IMG/VR virus record: IMGVR_UViG_2740892218_000011
DNA: 33,358 bases
Source: a virus
Taxonomy: Duplodnaviria > Heunggongvirae > Uroviricota > Caudoviricetes
Strand: one strand, 5' to 3'
Position numbers and translations under genes: made by a program. This document shows positions 1,008 to 33,358 of the stretch, in pieces (within the stretch, counting starts at the first letter, position 1; each line of letters starts with the position of its first letter). Under the pieces are notes generated by a model. The model had not been told where the DNA came from, made no database searches, and saw nothing but the letters and a program-made list of their open reading frames with translations.

Positions 1008-1355
1008 TTACTTATCACATAAATCAAATGCAGCCTTAGTGACATCTCCCAGATTCTTTTTTAACCCTGGGGCGGCATCATTATCCAGCCAAAATGGATT
1101 ATTGTTATCTAACGGTAACGCACCAAATGTTTTACCTTTTATTCGAGCCAAACCTGTAAGCGCATATAACTTATTATCGTCAAAATTCATCACATAAGGA
1201 TTACCATCTAGACACTGTAACTGAACCTCATCAGTATTAAATGGCCATACCCCATTGAAACTCTCACGTTCAATATTTTTAAAAGGCATTGCGACGGCAG
1301 AAAAAGAAAACATAGATAAAAAAGTAACTAATAGTTGAACATTTTTTACTTTCAT
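1008..1355 (-). CDS. Small secreted protein (signal peptide, two Cys), possibly YebY/DUF2511-like; prophage cargo
   Basis: 115 aa; N-terminal hydrophobic signal peptide (LLVTFLSMFSFSAVA), Cys48 and Cys113; region looks AT-rich by eye; lies between repressor and int, where P2 has no gene. Confidence 0.6.
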   Translation of the reverse strand: MKVKNVQLLVTFLSMFSFSAVAMPFKNIERESFNGVWPFNTDEVQLQCLDGNPYVMNFDDNKLYALTGLARIKGKTFGALPLDNNNPFWLDNDAAPGLKKNLGDVTKAAFDLCDK

Positions 1356-1384
1356 ACCATTACCTCAATTTAGCTCAAGTAAGA

Positions 1385-2035
1385 TTACAAATTAAAAAAC
1401 ATCCTAGAAATGGCACCACCTACCACCCCCCCTACGCAGATAAAGAATATTATTTCTTTTGGATAAAGTCGGATTAATTCTGAAGCACGAAGTCGGACTT
1501 CTGGTAAGGTCGAATTCTCTGTGTTGCTTGATACCGATTGTTGCTCTAACCACGACAATGCAGACTGCAACTGAGAACGAGTAAGATCGTTTAAACGTCC
1601 TGTACCGAAATTGATATGGCAATACCGCAGAAGTTTTTGTCGAAGTCCACAGTCTTCACTGTTACGTAGTAATAAACTTACAAGAGCCTTACAGGCATCA
1701 TGATCTTTACATCGCTCAAGCATTGCATGCAGAAAACTCTCCGCTGTTTTATATTGATTTACTGTCATATCATCAATACCAGCTACACCAATCTCCGCAT
1801 GTACTTTTTGCCAAATAATAAACGCTTCAGTATTGCTAGCTTCTGCAATAGCAGCAACCAAGCTATTTAGCTCCTTACGCTGAGCCTTAAGCAAAGGGCG
1901 ATCGTCATCATCATTATTCGAAGGGATTGCGATATTGACGGTATGAGAACCATCATATCGCCCTATCTGAATATTCTTTTCGTGAAAATCACGCCCAGCA
2001 ACGCGATTGTTTGAACCGTTTGAGTTGACGGCCAT
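1385..2035 (-). CDS. Tail-anchored membrane protein of unknown function (immunity-operon cargo)
   Basis: 216 aa; strong SD (AGGGAGGTG) 12 nt after the repressor stop; single C-terminal TM helix (IIFFICVGGVVGGAISRMFF); N-terminus shares the motif NNR[VI]AGRD[FY] with the repressor C-terminus. Confidence 0.6.
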   Translation of the reverse strand: MAVNSNGSNNRVAGRDFHEKNIQIGRYDGSHTVNIAIPSNNDDDDRPLLKAQRKELNSLVAAIAEASNTEAFIIWQKVHAEIGVAGIDDMTVNQYKTAESFLHAMLERCKDHDACKALVSLLLRNSEDCGLRQKLLRYCHINFGTGRLNDLTRSQLQSALSWLEQQSVSSNTENSTLPEVRLRASELIRLYPKEIIFFICVGGVVGGAISRMFFNL

Positions 2036-2050
2036 GTCACCTCCCTACTA

Positions 2051-2455
2051 TCACCTACCCTTAGTTTCGTTATAGTCACGCCCAGCGATACGGTTATTAC
2101 CGCCAGAAATATTTAACTCACGTCCTGATGGCTGAGTTTCCTTTTCACTGGCCGCACCTTTTAAAGCCCCGATCACCGCGTTTTTCACATCTAACGAAGC
2201 TGCTCGAAAGCGAGTAATCAACTCCTGCTCATCATCGTTATAAGTTTCAGGTGAGTGAATTCCCAACACAACATACTGAACATCAAGACCAAAACGAGAC
2301 AGCGCTGCCAAATACGCAGCATCAGGAAAGCTATCTCCTTTCTCATATCTAAGCTGAGTTAGCTTTTTGACTCCACCAATGTCGCTCATAGCAACTTGAC
2401 TAAGTCCCAATCTTTCCCTTTCCTCACGCAACCTCTGACCAATATCATTTTTCAT
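2051..2455 (-). CDS. Immunity repressor, HTH_XRE family (C/CI-like)
   Basis: N-terminal HTH (IGQRLREERERLGLSQVAMSDIGGVKKLTQLRYEKG); divergent from the early operon; start placed at the internal Met (MKNDIGQ...) because the longer ORF would overlap the divergent gene start. Confidence 0.75.
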   Translation of the reverse strand: MKNDIGQRLREERERLGLSQVAMSDIGGVKKLTQLRYEKGDSFPDAAYLAALSRFGLDVQYVVLGIHSPETYNDDEQELITRFRAASLDVKNAVIGALKGAASEKETQPSGRELNISGGNNRIAGRDYNETKGR

Positions 2456-2531
2456 ACAAAAAACCTTGACAGGTATCTTTTTTGATACCAAAATGATTTC
2501 ACGAGCTATTAGATGATCACAATATATCACT
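2456..2531. promoter_or_regulatory. Divergent lysogenic/early promoter-operator region
   Basis: 76-bp gap between divergent repressor and early genes; TTGACA hexamer at 2466-2471 immediately followed by perfect palindrome GGTATC-TTTTTT-GATACC (2472-2489). Confidence 0.45.
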
Positions 2532-30391: not shown

Positions 30392-30467
30392 AGTTCCAGC
30401 CCCTTGTATCCGTTAAATGATTCGGCAACAATCATCACCCACCACGCGCGTAATCTCATCCCTGCGC

Positions 30468-30495
30468 CGTTCTTGCCGCCCGGCGACAACAAAAA
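30468..30495. promoter_or_regulatory. Candidate late-promoter activator motif in the FI/D divergent intergenic region
   Basis: GTTCTTGCCG-N7-ACAACAAAAAG; near-identical bipartite motif with the same 7-nt spacer at 12574-12600; also reads TGC-N12-ACA. Confidence 0.3.
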
Positions 30496-30548
30496 GCAGT
30501 AACCCCGCCCGCACACACATGCGACCATGCTGCACAGGGAGGGAGCCA

Positions 30549-31658
30549 ATGATTGACACCACCATGCAACTGTTCAACCAGAGTACTGACCCCGTGAAGA
30601 TGCCTGATTTTGATATTCTCGCGGAGGGGAAAACGCTGTCCGGTGTGACAGAACGCCTGATGAGCCTGTCACTGACCGACAACCGGGGATTTGAAGCAGA
30701 CCAGCTAACCATCACGCTGGATGATGCTGATGGTCAGTTGCAGTTGCCGCTACGGGGCGCTCGCCTGACGGTTCTCATTGGCTGGAAAGGCGAACCGCTG
30801 ACAGAAAAAGGCACTTACATTGTTGATGAAATTGCTCATGAAGGACCGCCCGACAGACTGACCATTTCAGCCAGAAGCGCAGATTTTCGGGATGAATTTA
30901 ACGTCAAGCGCGAAGTATCCTGGCATGATGTGACCGTTGAACGCGTGGTGTCTGCAATTGCTCACCGATACGGCCTGAAACCGCAAATCAGCGAAATGCT
31001 GATGGATATTGAAATCGACCACGCTGACCAGACCGAAGAAAGCGACATGTCCTTCCTTACACGCATGGCGGAAATGCTGGGCGCAATCACCACGGTAAAA
31101 AGCGGTAATCTGTTATTCATCATGCCAGGTGGTGGCGTGAACGCGCAGGGAAAACCATTACCATCGTTTGCCATCACACGCAGCAGCGGCGATCGCCATC
31201 AGTTTCGCATTGCTGACCGCGAGGCGTATACGGGGGTACGCGCTTACTGGCTTGATCTTAATTACGGGAAAAAGAAAAAAGTCAGCGTGAAACGCCGCAA
31301 ACCGCCAAAACCCAAAAAGGAGAAAAGCAGCAGCCGTGAAGGTGACTATATGGAAGGTGCGGAAGGCAACGTGTTTGTGTTACGCAAGACTTATCAGAAC
31401 GAGCAGGCAGCAAGACGCGCAGCGGCGGCAAAGTGGCAGCAGCTACAACGCGGAGCCGCATCATTCTCCATCACGCTGGCGCGTGGACGCGCAGAACTCT
31501 ACCCCGAAATGCATGGCACGGTAACAGGATTTAAAAGCGAGATTGATAATCAGGACTGGATTATTGCAAAAGCCGAGCACTCCATTGATAACAGCGGCTT
31601 TACCACGCAGCTTGAGCTTGAGGCAAAAATCCAGGAATGGATAGCAGAAACAGAGTGA
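30549..31658 (+). CDS. D: Tail protein D (late control gene D family)
   Basis: Start at ATG 30549 (MIDTTMQLFNQ...) with SD GGAGGGA; 369 aa; gpD family by size and conserved segments. Confidence 0.8.
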   Translation: MIDTTMQLFNQSTDPVKMPDFDILAEGKTLSGVTERLMSLSLTDNRGFEADQLTITLDDADGQLQLPLRGARLTVLIGWKGEPLTEKGTYIVDEIAHEGPPDRLTISARSADFRDEFNVKREVSWHDVTVERVVSAIAHRYGLKPQISEMLMDIEIDHADQTEESDMSFLTRMAEMLGAITTVKSGNLLFIMPGGGVNAQGKPLPSFAITRSSGDRHQFRIADREAYTGVRAYWLDLNYGKKKKVSVKRRKPPKPKKEKSSSREGDYMEGAEGNVFVLRKTYQNEQAARRAAAAKWQQLQRGAASFSITLARGRAELYPEMHGTVTGFKSEIDNQDWIIAKAEHSIDNSGFTTQLELEAKIQEWIAETE

Positions 31659-31700
31659 GCAACTTAGAATAGCGGCAGCACCACGTTAAGGGAGGTCGCT

Positions 31701-31961
31701 ATGTTCCGTTGTCCGCTTTGTGGCGCATCTGCCCGAATCCGCACCAGTCGTTCGGAAAATGATTCAGATACCGTACGGAAAAAATATTACCAGTGTAACA
31801 ACCTGGAATGCGGCGTATGCTTCTCAACACTGGAGGCTTTCCATAAATTCACATCGAAACACGCCCCCGGCGTTCACTCTTCAGAGGGCATCCCGTGGAA
31901 TGAGCTACCAGCTTCGCACAGGGGAAACAACCAGATGAGTTTGCCATTACCTCAGAATTAA
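31701..31961 (+). CDS. ogr: Ogr/Delta-type zinc-finger late transcription activator
   Basis: 86 aa; N-terminus MFRCPLCGASARIRTSR...YYQCNNLECGVCF with the four-Cys arrangement of P2 Ogr (MFHCPLC...HQCQNVNCSATF, recalled); terminal prophage position. Confidence 0.8.
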   Translation: MFRCPLCGASARIRTSRSENDSDTVRKKYYQCNNLECGVCFSTLEAFHKFTSKHAPGVHSSEGIPWNELPASHRGNNQMSLPLPQN

Positions 31962-32021
31962 CAGGCTGAATTGCCGGAGTAACAAAAAAGCGATAGATTA
32001 CGCGCGGGTGCCTTTCGGCTG

Positions 32022-32234
32022 ATGGCTGGAGGGAATACCCGAAGGCCGGATGTGGAAAGGCCCCGGAAAACATCTCTGTTTAACCGAGGCCCTGACCATC
32101 TAACCTTAGCAAGTGATAGGTTAGCGCCTCCCCAAAAAAGGAGCAAGCGCTATGTCGCAAAAATCGCTTATGGCCATCACGTTCTGCGTGACGGTAATCC
32201 TCATCATCTGGATGCTGCACGGTTCGCTGTGTGA
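32022..32234 (+). CDS. mok: mok-like overlapping reading frame of the hok locus
   Basis: 70 aa ORF overlapping hok in another frame, as in hok/mok/sok loci. Confidence 0.4.
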   Translation: MAGGNTRRPDVERPRKTSLFNRGPDHLTLASDRLAPPQKRSKRYVAKIAYGHHVLRDGNPHHLDAARFAV

Positions 32235-32292
32235 AATACGGATGAGCTTCTGGGGAGCGGAGTTTGCGGCGTTCTTACAGTGTAAGCAGTAA
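32152..32292 (+). CDS. hok: Hok/Gef family type I toxin
   Basis: 46 aa MSQKSLMAITFCVTVILIIWMLHGSLCEIRMSFWGAEFAAFLQCKQ: N-terminal TM then SLCEIR...G..E.AAF, matching the Hok signature; below the ORF-track cutoff. Confidence 0.7.
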   Translation: MSQKSLMAITFCVTVILIIWMLHGSLCEIRMSFWGAEFAAFLQCKQ

Positions 32293-32378
32293 GGAAACCG
32301 CGACGGGGGAGCAATCCCCCGTCAATCGGTTGCTAAGGCTGGCCGAAGTGGCACCCTATCCCATGGACACAAACAAGA

Positions 32379-32413
32379 AAACCCGCAGCGTAAAAACTGC
32401 GGGTTTTCTTTTG
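32379..32413 (+). terminator. Rho-independent terminator of the hok transcript
   Basis: AAAACCCGCAG-CGTAAAAA-CTGCGGGTTTTCTTTT. Confidence 0.5.
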
Positions 32414-32483
32414 GAGCTCTCACTTAGCTAAGGTACCGTTAACAACACACATAATGCTCGCAAAACAAACCAGTTAAAAGTGA

Positions 32484-32765
32484 TTACTCAGCATTCTCCT
32501 GCTTCCATTGCCGGATCATTTCATCCGTAACATCACTCTCATAACATACCACGTCATACCCTCCAGTACGGCTATATGCACTGCGTCTACCACATCTACT
32601 ACCATTCCTTGCATGATTATAAGGACACGCACAATTGCCTGGATACGATTCAATGGATTCTTTAATTATTTCTTTCTTGATCTGAGCATCAGACTTTCCT
32701 GTTGCTGCATACCCACTAAAAGATACCAAACAAAAACAGATTGCCATTAATAAACCACATCGCAT
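32484..32765 (-). CDS. Small secreted Cys-rich protein of unknown function
   Basis: Start at the internal Met (MRCGLLMAICFCLVSFSGYAATG signal peptide); mature part has several Cys and motif CACPYNHARNGSRCGRRSAYSRTGGY; region looks AT-rich. Confidence 0.5.
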   Translation of the reverse strand: MRCGLLMAICFCLVSFSGYAATGKSDAQIKKEIIKESIESYPGNCACPYNHARNGSRCGRRSAYSRTGGYDVVCYESDVTDEMIRQWKQENAE

Positions 32766-33019
32766 ACCGATACACTCTATTACTAACCAATCATAACCCA
32801 CATCATAAAATCGAGATGTGGAGTACAACACCTTTAACAAGAAGGTGTCATAACGATAATATGCCGTGCAATTCATCAAAAAAAAGATCTATATCAAAGA
32901 GATAGAGCTCTTATCAGTGCTGCAGACATCGGCATTCGAGGCAGCAGAAAAACAGTAAATCTGACGAATTTGCCTTTTCTCAGGATGTTGTCAGATTAAA
33001 AAAGACAGATTAGCGCAGG

Positions 33020-33180
33020 TACCTTTTGGTGGATGGCAGGAGGAAAAATGAAGTCGAGTGGAAAAATCCCAGAAAAATTTTTGTTTAACCGAGGTCCTAG
33101 TTCACTATGCGAAATACGGAGGAGCTGCAGGAGAATTCGGCTTCATCCTTAGAGTTTAAACAGCACGTGCACTACTATTG
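33020..33180 (+). pseudogene. Degenerate hok-like locus (leader and 3' end retained, TM-coding middle deleted)
   Basis: 33020-33100 is about 70% identical to the hok leader at 32010-32100; GAAATACGGAGGAGCTGCAGGAGAATTCGGC matches the hok 3' region, but about 125 bp between them is missing. Confidence 0.35.
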
Positions 33181-33234
33181 TTTCTGCATATCGCCACACC
33201 ATCGCCACTCCACCGCCATTGCACAAAATACAAA

Positions 33235-33260
33235 TACAAAAAAACCACCCGAAGGTGGTT
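33235..33260 (-). terminator. Terminator hairpin downstream of the tRNA (minus strand)
   Basis: ACCACCC-GAA-GGTGGT stem flanked by an A-run (plus) / T-run (minus), about 45 nt beyond the tRNA 3' end. Confidence 0.4.
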
Positions 33261-33304
33261 TCACGACACTGCTTATTGCTTTGATTTTATTCTTATCTTT
33301 CCCA

Positions 33305-33358
33305 TGGTACCCGGAGCGGGACTTGAACCCGCACAGCGCGAACGCCGAGGGATTTTAA
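33305..33358 (-). tRNA. leuZ: tRNA-Leu(UAA), 3' portion only (truncated by window end)
   Basis: Minus strand reads ...TTAAAATCCCTCGGCGTTCGCGCTGTGCGGGTTCAAGTCCCGCTCCGGGTACCA: T-arm GGTTCAAGTCC, long variable arm, terminal CCA, UAA anticodon at the window edge; matches E. coli leuZ from memory. Confidence 0.75.

Follow-up and report, generated by a model that had tools for sequence, protein, structure and literature searches.

What is the small toxin-like gene that directly follows the late-gene activator gene ogr in an Escherichia coli P2-like prophage: is it a complete type I toxin–antitoxin locus, does it include the helper frame mok, and does it belong to the phage or to the host? The locus lies in the IMG/VR virus record IMGVR_UViG_2740892218_000011, the whole 33,358-nt stretch of which is referred to here as the window. 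The window begins at the integrase stop codon (position 1) and, toward its other end, carries gpD (30417-31658) and ogr (31701-31961; Pfam Ogr_Delta, 53.4 bits), the latter ending 10 nt before the -35 box of the hok promoter. Its right end enters the tRNA gene leuZ, beyond which cysT, glyW and pgsA are found in nearly identical RefSeq genomes. We conclude with high confidence that positions 31971-32413 constitute a complete hok/sok-type type I toxin–antitoxin cassette, carried as cargo of a P2-like (P88/Xuanwuvirus-like) prophage integrated at leuZ and located between ogr and the right attachment site (attR). The locus is an ordinary one, of an already known kind and already annotated as Hok/Gef; the sole unusual point of the cassette is that its "mok" helper frame is not conserved.

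The toxin gene, its mRNA and the predicted antisense RNA

The hok coding sequence occupies positions 32152-32292 of the plus strand, is preceded by the Shine-Dalgarno (SD) sequence AAGGAG at 32138-32143, and encodes a peptide of 46 aa, MSQKSLMAITFCVTVILIIWMLHGSLCEIRMSFWGAEFAAFLQCKQ, with a hydrophobic stretch in residues 7-22. Residues 7-44 of this peptide align with positions 5-42 of the 42-position Pfam profile HOK_GEF (PF01848) with 30.3 bits (gathering score 22), and the full-length peptide matches PHROG 251, "MokW-like host killing", with an E-value of 3e-23. The residues C16, T18, L30, C31, E32 and E41, reported to be conserved across 1264 Hok peptides, correspond in spacing to C12, T14, L26, C27, E28 and E37 of the window Hok (logo in preprint 10.1101/2025.08.07.668861); among 45 diverse Hok peptides assayed in the same study, 42 were toxic. 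Identical peptides are found on more than 990 public contigs under the name "Hok/Gef family protein", which is also the RefSeq label of the locus.

For comparative analysis, IMG/VR was scanned with a 17-mer of the tac element at the 5' end of the hok mRNA, which yielded 120 loci; together with plasmid and phage copies, 65 unique sequences were aligned. An open reading frame (ORF) of 46-48 aa for Hok is retained in 73 of 74 IMG/VR relatives (exactly 46 aa in 72 of these), many amino acid substitutions notwithstanding. The predicted hok promoter (31971-31999, plus strand) consists of a -35 box TTGCCG (31971-31976), a 17-nt spacer and a -10 box TAGATT (31994-31999), with a predicted transcription start at about 32006. 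Among 64 unique relatives the -10 box reads TAnATT or TAGAAT at a fixed position, and a TTG-type -35 box is present in nearly all, even next to unrelated upstream DNA. A stricter consensus promoter scan reported neither this promoter nor that of Sok, both of which were assigned from positional conservation and from the annotation of phage 933W.

The full-length hok mRNA is predicted to span about 408 nt (32006-32413, plus strand), its 5' end corresponding to position 1 of the Rfam model RF01794 and its 3' end being given by the terminator. This segment folds at -186.4 kcal/mol compared with -135.4 +/- 6.1 kcal/mol for shuffled sequences (z -8.3), with closure of the 5' end on the 3' end. In the minimum free energy (MFE) structure of the full-length molecule, tac (32006-32020) pairs with fbi (GGCCGAAGUGGCACCC, 32341-32356) and so closes the mRNA; the duplex is retained in all 65 aligned sequences, at a median of -27.9 kcal/mol versus -15.0 for shuffled tails (median z -4.4), and the variants on the fbi side are all compatible with G.U pairing to tac. 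Alternatively, tac can pair with a near downstream segment or with ucb (GUGGAAAGGCCCC, 32052-32064). As read from the RNAalifold consensus and the MFE structure, ucb has tac as its partner when the mRNA is open and GAGGCC when it is closed. A folding energy of -35.2 kcal/mol (z -4.3) was computed for the tac/ucb hairpin (32006-32064), and the RNAalifold consensus of the 65 unique homologs recovers its helix (32006-32019/32052-32064) with covariation. An SD-like GAGGC box at 32086-32090, which occupies the position of the mok SD in plasmid R1 and in 933W (the latter aligned by eye), is kept in 63 of the 65 sequences and pairs with ucb in the MFE structure or with dcb in the RNAalifold consensus. 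The dcb element (GCCUCC, 32126-32131), in turn, occupies the hok SD in the closed mRNA and binds GAGGC instead when the mRNA is open. Two further helices are recovered with covariation, namely GAGGC/dcb (32086-32097/32119-32130) and one in which the hok start codon is sequestered (32152-32169/32255-32272).

Downstream of the stop codon, a stable stem at 32296-32331 (-25.3 kcal/mol, z -5.6) contains a perfect 9-bp core at 32302-32323, GACGGGGGA-GCAA-TCCCCCGTC. Compensatory changes are found at 32302/32323, 32303/32322, 32309/32316 and 32310/32315, and not one core pair is broken in the 65 sequences; this hairpin is likely the stop point for 3' trimming of the mRNA. The cassette ends with an intrinsic terminator (32375-32413; -22.6 kcal/mol, z -5.4) that is symmetric enough to serve both directions. 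Forcing the full-length mRNA into the open conformation costs 14.7 kcal/mol, and this cost falls to 2.8 kcal/mol after removal of 32336-32413, the segment holding fbi and the terminator; the modeled shift fits the switch by 3' processing described for R1 (PMC9841398). A sequence-only reading of the window, made without database searches, had proposed a 46-aa Hok-family type I toxin locus immediately after ogr, with a structured leader, a perfect 9-bp hairpin and a rho-independent terminator as its parts. Each of these elements is borne out at the positions given above.

On the opposite strand, a Sok promoter (32118-32146, minus strand) is predicted from a -35 box TTGCTC (32146-32141), a 17-nt spacer and a -10 box TAACCT (32123-32118). 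The -10 box and the spacer length are invariant in all 65 sequences, and the -35 box, which overlaps the hok SD, reads TTGCTC in 54 of them. On the model of the sokW annotation in phage 933W, the promoter would drive a Sok RNA of about 57 nt (32053-32111, minus strand; both ends are predicted), which folds into a 13-nt single-stranded 5' tail and a stem-loop followed by UUUCC. The stem (32059-32066/32084-32091) is fully paired on the minus strand only: it includes a U.G pair in 63 and a G.U pair in 20 of the 65 sequences, and these would be C.A or A.C mismatches on the plus strand, which provides direct evidence of selection on an antisense transcript. The leader segment facing the 5' tail is hypervariable between conserved flanks, as expected of a specificity determinant. 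Taken together, the conserved minus-strand promoter and the hairpin that is fully paired on that strand alone define a predicted Sok-like RNA, which is complementary to the hok leader and has a promoter and a terminator of its own.

At the gathering thresholds, an Rfam search of the window produced no matches. With an E-value cutoff instead, RF01794 aligns over its entire length (1-157) with plus-strand positions 32006-32140, at 40.9 bits and an E-value of 2.5e-7. The copies of phage P88, of an Stx phage and of an IncI1 plasmid score between 42 and 48 bits, compared with 113.5 bits for 933W and 70.1 bits for hokA of E. coli K-12. The clade of 46-aa Hok proteins thus lies systematically under the RF01794 threshold (41-48 bits in the tested copies versus 59). 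For this reason, the proposal that the absence of a Hok or Sok family hit in Rfam would refute the locus was too strict, as the sub-threshold match is itself significant. In 933W, the RF01794 match falls on the plus (hok) strand, at 703-877 of the extracted locus, and sokW is annotated on the minus strand at 753-823; hence this "sok" model describes the leader of the hok mRNA in the sense orientation, from tac to the hok start.

The 70-codon frame and the question of mok

The hok gene was also reported to be overlapped by a 70-aa mok-like frame. Such a frame does exist (32022-32234, plus strand), but its identity as mok is not supported, as it is closed in most close relatives and matches no family in Pfam, NCBIfam or PHROGs. 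Its AUG at 32022 has no SD, is buried in the tac stem 130 nt before hok, and is not at the canonical position after GAGG. In 933W, the canonical mok start is an AUG about 10 nt after GAGG; at the homologous position of the window there is no AUG, GUG or UUG, and AUC-UAA is found at 32098-32103.

Across the 64 unique relatives, a leader ORF with an ATG, GTG or TTG start reaches the hok SD in 29, and the ORFs starting from two conserved leader AUGs end at scattered positions. The conserved AUG at 32050 was considered as the start of a short mok-like leader and rejected because of its scattered ends and because it reads into hok in only 11 of 65 sequences. In phage P88, 94% identical to the window here, the leader frame is closed before hok and there is no mok-like ORF. 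As a control, we analyzed 74 unique IMG/VR loci of the hokW-type clade, all of which possess a read-through ORF with an ATG start; in 72 of them this start codon precedes hok by about 57 nt. Judging from these comparisons, mok is not a conserved part of the clade to which the window belongs, and the 70-aa frame is probably fortuitous.

The hok gene of R1 requires mok translation that reaches the hok SD (PMC9841398). If the 70-aa frame were a genuine mok to which hok translation is coupled as in R1, its course from AUG 32022 through the SD and start codon of hok would satisfy that requirement, and about a fifth of the unique relatives share the same read-through arrangement. We nevertheless regard this as unlikely in view of an initiation codon that lacks an SD and is buried in the tac stem, of the closure of the frame in P88 and most relatives, of the lack of a protein family match and of the universal retention of a mok-type frame in the hokW-type control; moreover, by our estimate, 43 codons would stay open by chance with a probability of about 0.13, (61/64)^43. 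A tentative proposal, to which we give somewhat more credence while still holding it to be a minority possibility, is that the clade of 46-aa Hok proteins, mostly linked to ogr in IMG/VR, may be a hok/sok variant that naturally does without mok. Hok translation would then be uncoupled from any leader ORF and gated directly by the RNA switch, in which GAGGC has ucb or dcb as its partner and dcb otherwise sequesters the hok SD; Sok would work by covering GAGGC and not by preventing mok initiation. If confirmed, a clade without an ORF that textbooks treat as integral to these systems would be a natural test case for mok-independent control.

Several points weigh against our reading of the locus as a complete hok/sok-type cassette. 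The NCBIfam HokA and Hok-subfamily models match the peptide only below their cutoffs; the best-scoring named model, the HokA equivalog NF007290, gives 35.1 bits (E 1e-8) against a cutoff of 89, and the protein is therefore to be considered a member of the Hok/Gef family and not HokA. The score of 40.9 bits for RF01794 is, as noted, under the gathering threshold. Because the loci were collected with the tac 17-mer, tac is invariant in the sample by construction, so that covariation on the tac side is not assessable. The MFE structure of the truncated mRNA does not flip and keeps the hok SD paired; the case for a switch rests on the energy comparison and not on a predicted change of the MFE structure. 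The conservation of the Sok promoter has more than one possible cause, given that it overlaps the hok SD and dcb, and the Sok-like RNA by itself folds only modestly better than shuffled sequences (z -2.9). The ends of the hok and Sok transcripts are predicted ones. Finally, given the missing conserved mok, translation of these loci could be poor or could fail altogether.

Possible mechanism and role

The mechanism outlined here is modeled on the paradigms of R1 hok/sok (PMC9841398) and hokW/sokW of prophage Sp5 (PMC8621323). The stable full-length mRNA, closed by tac and fbi, would be untranslatable. Slow trimming from the 3' end to the post-stop hairpin would remove fbi, after which the energies of the open and the closed fold would be almost equal (the difference falling from +14.7 to +2.8 kcal/mol). 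As long as the abundant but unstable Sok is made, it would pair with the mRNA at 32053-32111, blocking activation and triggering cleavage. Loss or deletion of the prophage, transcription shut-off imposed by an infecting phage, or induction would end Sok synthesis and allow the stored mRNA to be translated, whereupon Hok would depolarize the inner membrane. In the absence of a conserved mok, unlike the situation in R1 and 933W, we hypothesize that Sok may target the GAGGC/dcb/hok-SD switch itself instead of working via translational coupling.

The most likely role of the cassette is stabilization of the prophage and its protection from deletion, and/or defense by abortive infection, because the same cassette is found on IncI1, IncC and IncF plasmids; assistance in lysis is a third option. 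Sequence alone cannot choose among the three. The last of them can be put in a stronger form, namely that the cassette mainly serves the lytic cycle and not addiction or defense, with the loss of Sok after induction leading to early membrane damage by Hok and increased phage release. The hokW-sokW locus of prophage Sp5 offers an experimental precedent (PMC8621323), and the position of the cassette directly downstream of the late-gene activator ogr, with no terminator in between, makes late read-through conceivable. However, HokW (51 aa, with mok conserved) represents another clade, the effect in Sp5 is only about twofold (PMC8621323), a lysis role would make no sense for the plasmid copies, and no sequence feature discriminates addiction, defense and lysis assistance. 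We consider it doubtful that the lytic cycle is the main purpose of the cassette.

Less probable still is that the locus is a decaying, translationally silent relic, as are most chromosomal hok loci of K-12, from which no Hok would be made for want of a functional mok. The replacement of the mok AUG by AUC-UAA and the scattered ends of the leader ORFs would agree with this, as would the dependence of R1 hok on mok translation (PMC9841398); decay does occur at this site, where a dead second hok lies 700 bp downstream, and K-12 hokA is disrupted by IS150. A neutral relic, however, would not be expected to keep its promoter, tac, ucb, dcb, fbi, hok SD and Sok promoter conserved with compensatory changes, nor a toxin ORF of 46-48 aa in all but one of the 74 relatives despite many substitutions. 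Furthermore, the clade moves between P2-like phages, Stx phages and plasmids, and the great majority of diverse Hok peptides are toxic (42 of 45; preprint 10.1101/2025.08.07.668861).

Setting in the prophage and relation to known systems

It had been left open whether hok, seemingly placed at the prophage–host junction, is phage cargo or a host gene, and comparison with an unoccupied site had been suggested as a way to locate attR. Such a comparison, using the empty site of K-12 together with direct repeats in E. coli H3, located attR at 33236-33358, about 940 bp downstream of the hok stop codon; hok is not at the junction. The attR stretch comprises a phage-supplied copy of 3'ETS-leuZ (33238-33304) and the 3' part of leuZ from 33305 (minus strand), which is cut by the window end; ARAGORN consequently found no tRNA in the window, and leuZ was identified through K-12 and RefSeq annotation. 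The stretch is 100% identical to K-12, and homology between the window and K-12 begins only at 33236: the empty site of K-12 reads yecA, 3'ETS-leuZ, leuZ, with nothing else between them, and 31962-33235 are absent. In E. coli H3 (NZ_CP010167.1), where the integrase end is 100% identical to positions 1-1400 of the window, perfect direct repeats of 124 bp (3168104-3168227 and 3205240-3205363) flank the prophage and enclose hok. Each repeat is made up of 3'ETS-leuZ and of leuZ sequence from the 3' end as far as the anticodon loop, and one copy is next to the integrase gene. No additional leuZ fragment was detected between hok and attR. Phage P88 shares 31600-32412 at 93.9% identity, the homology ending right after the hok terminator, and in 95 of the 120 IMG/VR loci with this tac sequence an Ogr ORF lies directly upstream. 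Given that the attachment repeats enclose hok, that the K-12 site lacks it and that P88 carries the ogr-hok pair, these alignments identify hok as phage cargo.

That a host chromosomal hok at leuZ merely abuts the prophage is highly improbable, for it would explain the position of hok at the far right end and the 820 bp between its terminator and attR that are not in P88, but is opposed by the K-12 site without any of 31962-33235, by the repeats surrounding hok in H3, by the lack of an extra leuZ fragment, by the cassette in phages P88, Chuche, P884B11 and 500465-2, by the ogr linkage, and by the presence of a P2-like prophage or remnant alongside 32420-33240 in every inspected genome that has this segment.

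The attachment site itself has a further property. In K-12, 3'ETS-leuZ is annotated as a small regulatory RNA, and since the site copies it, lysogens carry two 3'ETS-leuZ copies; the one joined to the functional glyW-cysT-leuZ operon is the phage-supplied copy.

Just inside attR, about 700 bp past the intact gene and in the same orientation, there is a second, dead hok (32988-33167, plus strand). Its leader is about 75% identical to 31984-32093, the promoter spacer is shortened to 12 nt, and an internal deletion of about 135 nt has fused the leader to the ...SLCEIR codons, with loss of the Sok promoter, the hok SD and the hok start. Diverged relatives, E. coli H3 among them, carry the dead copy as well. 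The pair of an intact and a dead hok is echoed by two IMG/VR contigs with tandem hok leaders 455-722 bp apart, each followed by an intact 46-aa ORF (L033, at 4316 and 5038; L101, at 5542 and 5997). Between the two hok copies of the window, the minus strand encodes a 93-aa Cys-rich protein (32484-32765) that has a hydrophobic, signal-like segment at its N-terminus; a match to phrog_27544 (unknown function) covers the entire protein, which belongs to no Pfam or NCBIfam family and is a hypothetical protein in RefSeq. Upstream, E. coli H3 carries genes for a TIR-domain and a SIR2-family protein, a Thoeris-like pair, between gpD and ogr (NZ_CP010167.1, 3201377-3203292); the equivalent site in the window is the 42-bp gap between gpD and ogr (about 31659-31700). 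One gene upstream of hok there thus seems to be a slot for variable cargo. Near the left prophage end, a DUF2511 gene and a gene for a 216-aa hypothetical protein (1008-2530, minus strand; names from H3 RefSeq) are located between the integrase gene and a repressor-like helix-turn-helix gene and may be further cargo.

The cassette is common. Related loci with at least 80% query coverage are present in 1521 of 5426 complete E. coli genomes (about 28%), at up to 8 places per genome, and the E. coli examples listed are all annotated as Hok/Gef, except for one short match to the terminator only. Apart from P88, the cassette was found in five further phage genomes, Chuche, P884B11 and 500465-2 being among the carriers, and the clade extends to Stx phages and to IncI1, IncC and IncF plasmids. 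Stx-phage matches of 82.8% identity were at one point taken for hokW; this assignment was rejected because they represent a separate 46-aa hok adjoining lom, and the true hokW/sokW locus was located by a published primer sequence. About 40 of the 120 IMG/VR contigs (e.g., L025, L031 and L048) end 289-290 nt past the start of the tac pattern, that is, at the hok stop codon. Evidently, automated prophage calling sets the boundary where the last predicted gene ends, so that fbi, the terminator and attR are lost.

The enrichment of hok in prophages has already been reported (preprint 10.1101/2025.08.07.668861), and a prophage-borne type I system, hokW-sokW, has been characterized experimentally (PMC8621323). 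Literature searches on hok with P2-like phages, ogr and Peduoviridae returned no paper describing the linkage of ogr and hok. For a cassette this common, the importance of the present findings beyond correct annotation is small. The gain consists in the firm assignment of the hok cassette to the phage, with a defined attachment site, in the demonstration that Rfam systematically misses this clade at the gathering score, and in the recognition that the clade has no conserved mok.

Among known systems, hok/sok (parB) of plasmid R1 shares with the window locus a Hok/Gef peptide, an mRNA closed by tac and fbi, the alternative pairings of ucb and dcb, a stable post-stop hairpin, an antisense Sok promoter overlapping the hok SD region, and a predicted switch on 3' processing (for the R1 mechanism, see PMC9841398). 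The two differ in that R1 Hok is 52 aa long versus 46 aa in the window, in that the window clade lacks both a conserved mok ORF and an AUG following the GAGG box, and in that the R1 copy resides on a plasmid, whereas the window copy is in a prophage and has a classical intrinsic terminator after fbi. The hokW-sokW locus (with mokW) of the Stx2 prophage Sp5 and phage 933W is likewise prophage-borne and has the RF01794 leader architecture, and sokW of 933W has the same -10 hexamer, TAACCT, in the same layout relative to the hok SD. It nonetheless belongs to a different clade, with a HokW of 51 aa and the tac sequence GGGTGCTTGAGGC; mokW is an in-frame, AUG-initiated extension that has no conserved counterpart in the clade of the window, hokW is located in a lambdoid early region and not after ogr, and RF01794 scores 113.5 bits at 933W compared with 40.9 in the window. 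The hokA/sokA locus of K-12 resembles the window in the C-terminal motif ...EFAAFLxCK and supplies the best named NCBIfam model, but hokA encodes 50 aa and is disrupted by IS150, and the window peptide reaches 35 bits versus the HokA cutoff of 89. The closest counterpart is gp52 of phage P88 (NC_026014), "MokW-like host killing", which belongs to an orthologous cassette in the same place after ogr, as also in phages Chuche, P884B11 and 500465-2. The P88 cassette is 94% identical over 31600-32412 and differs by a single Hok residue; P88 has a different integrase and attachment module, its homology to the window stops past the hok terminator, and its leader frame is closed.

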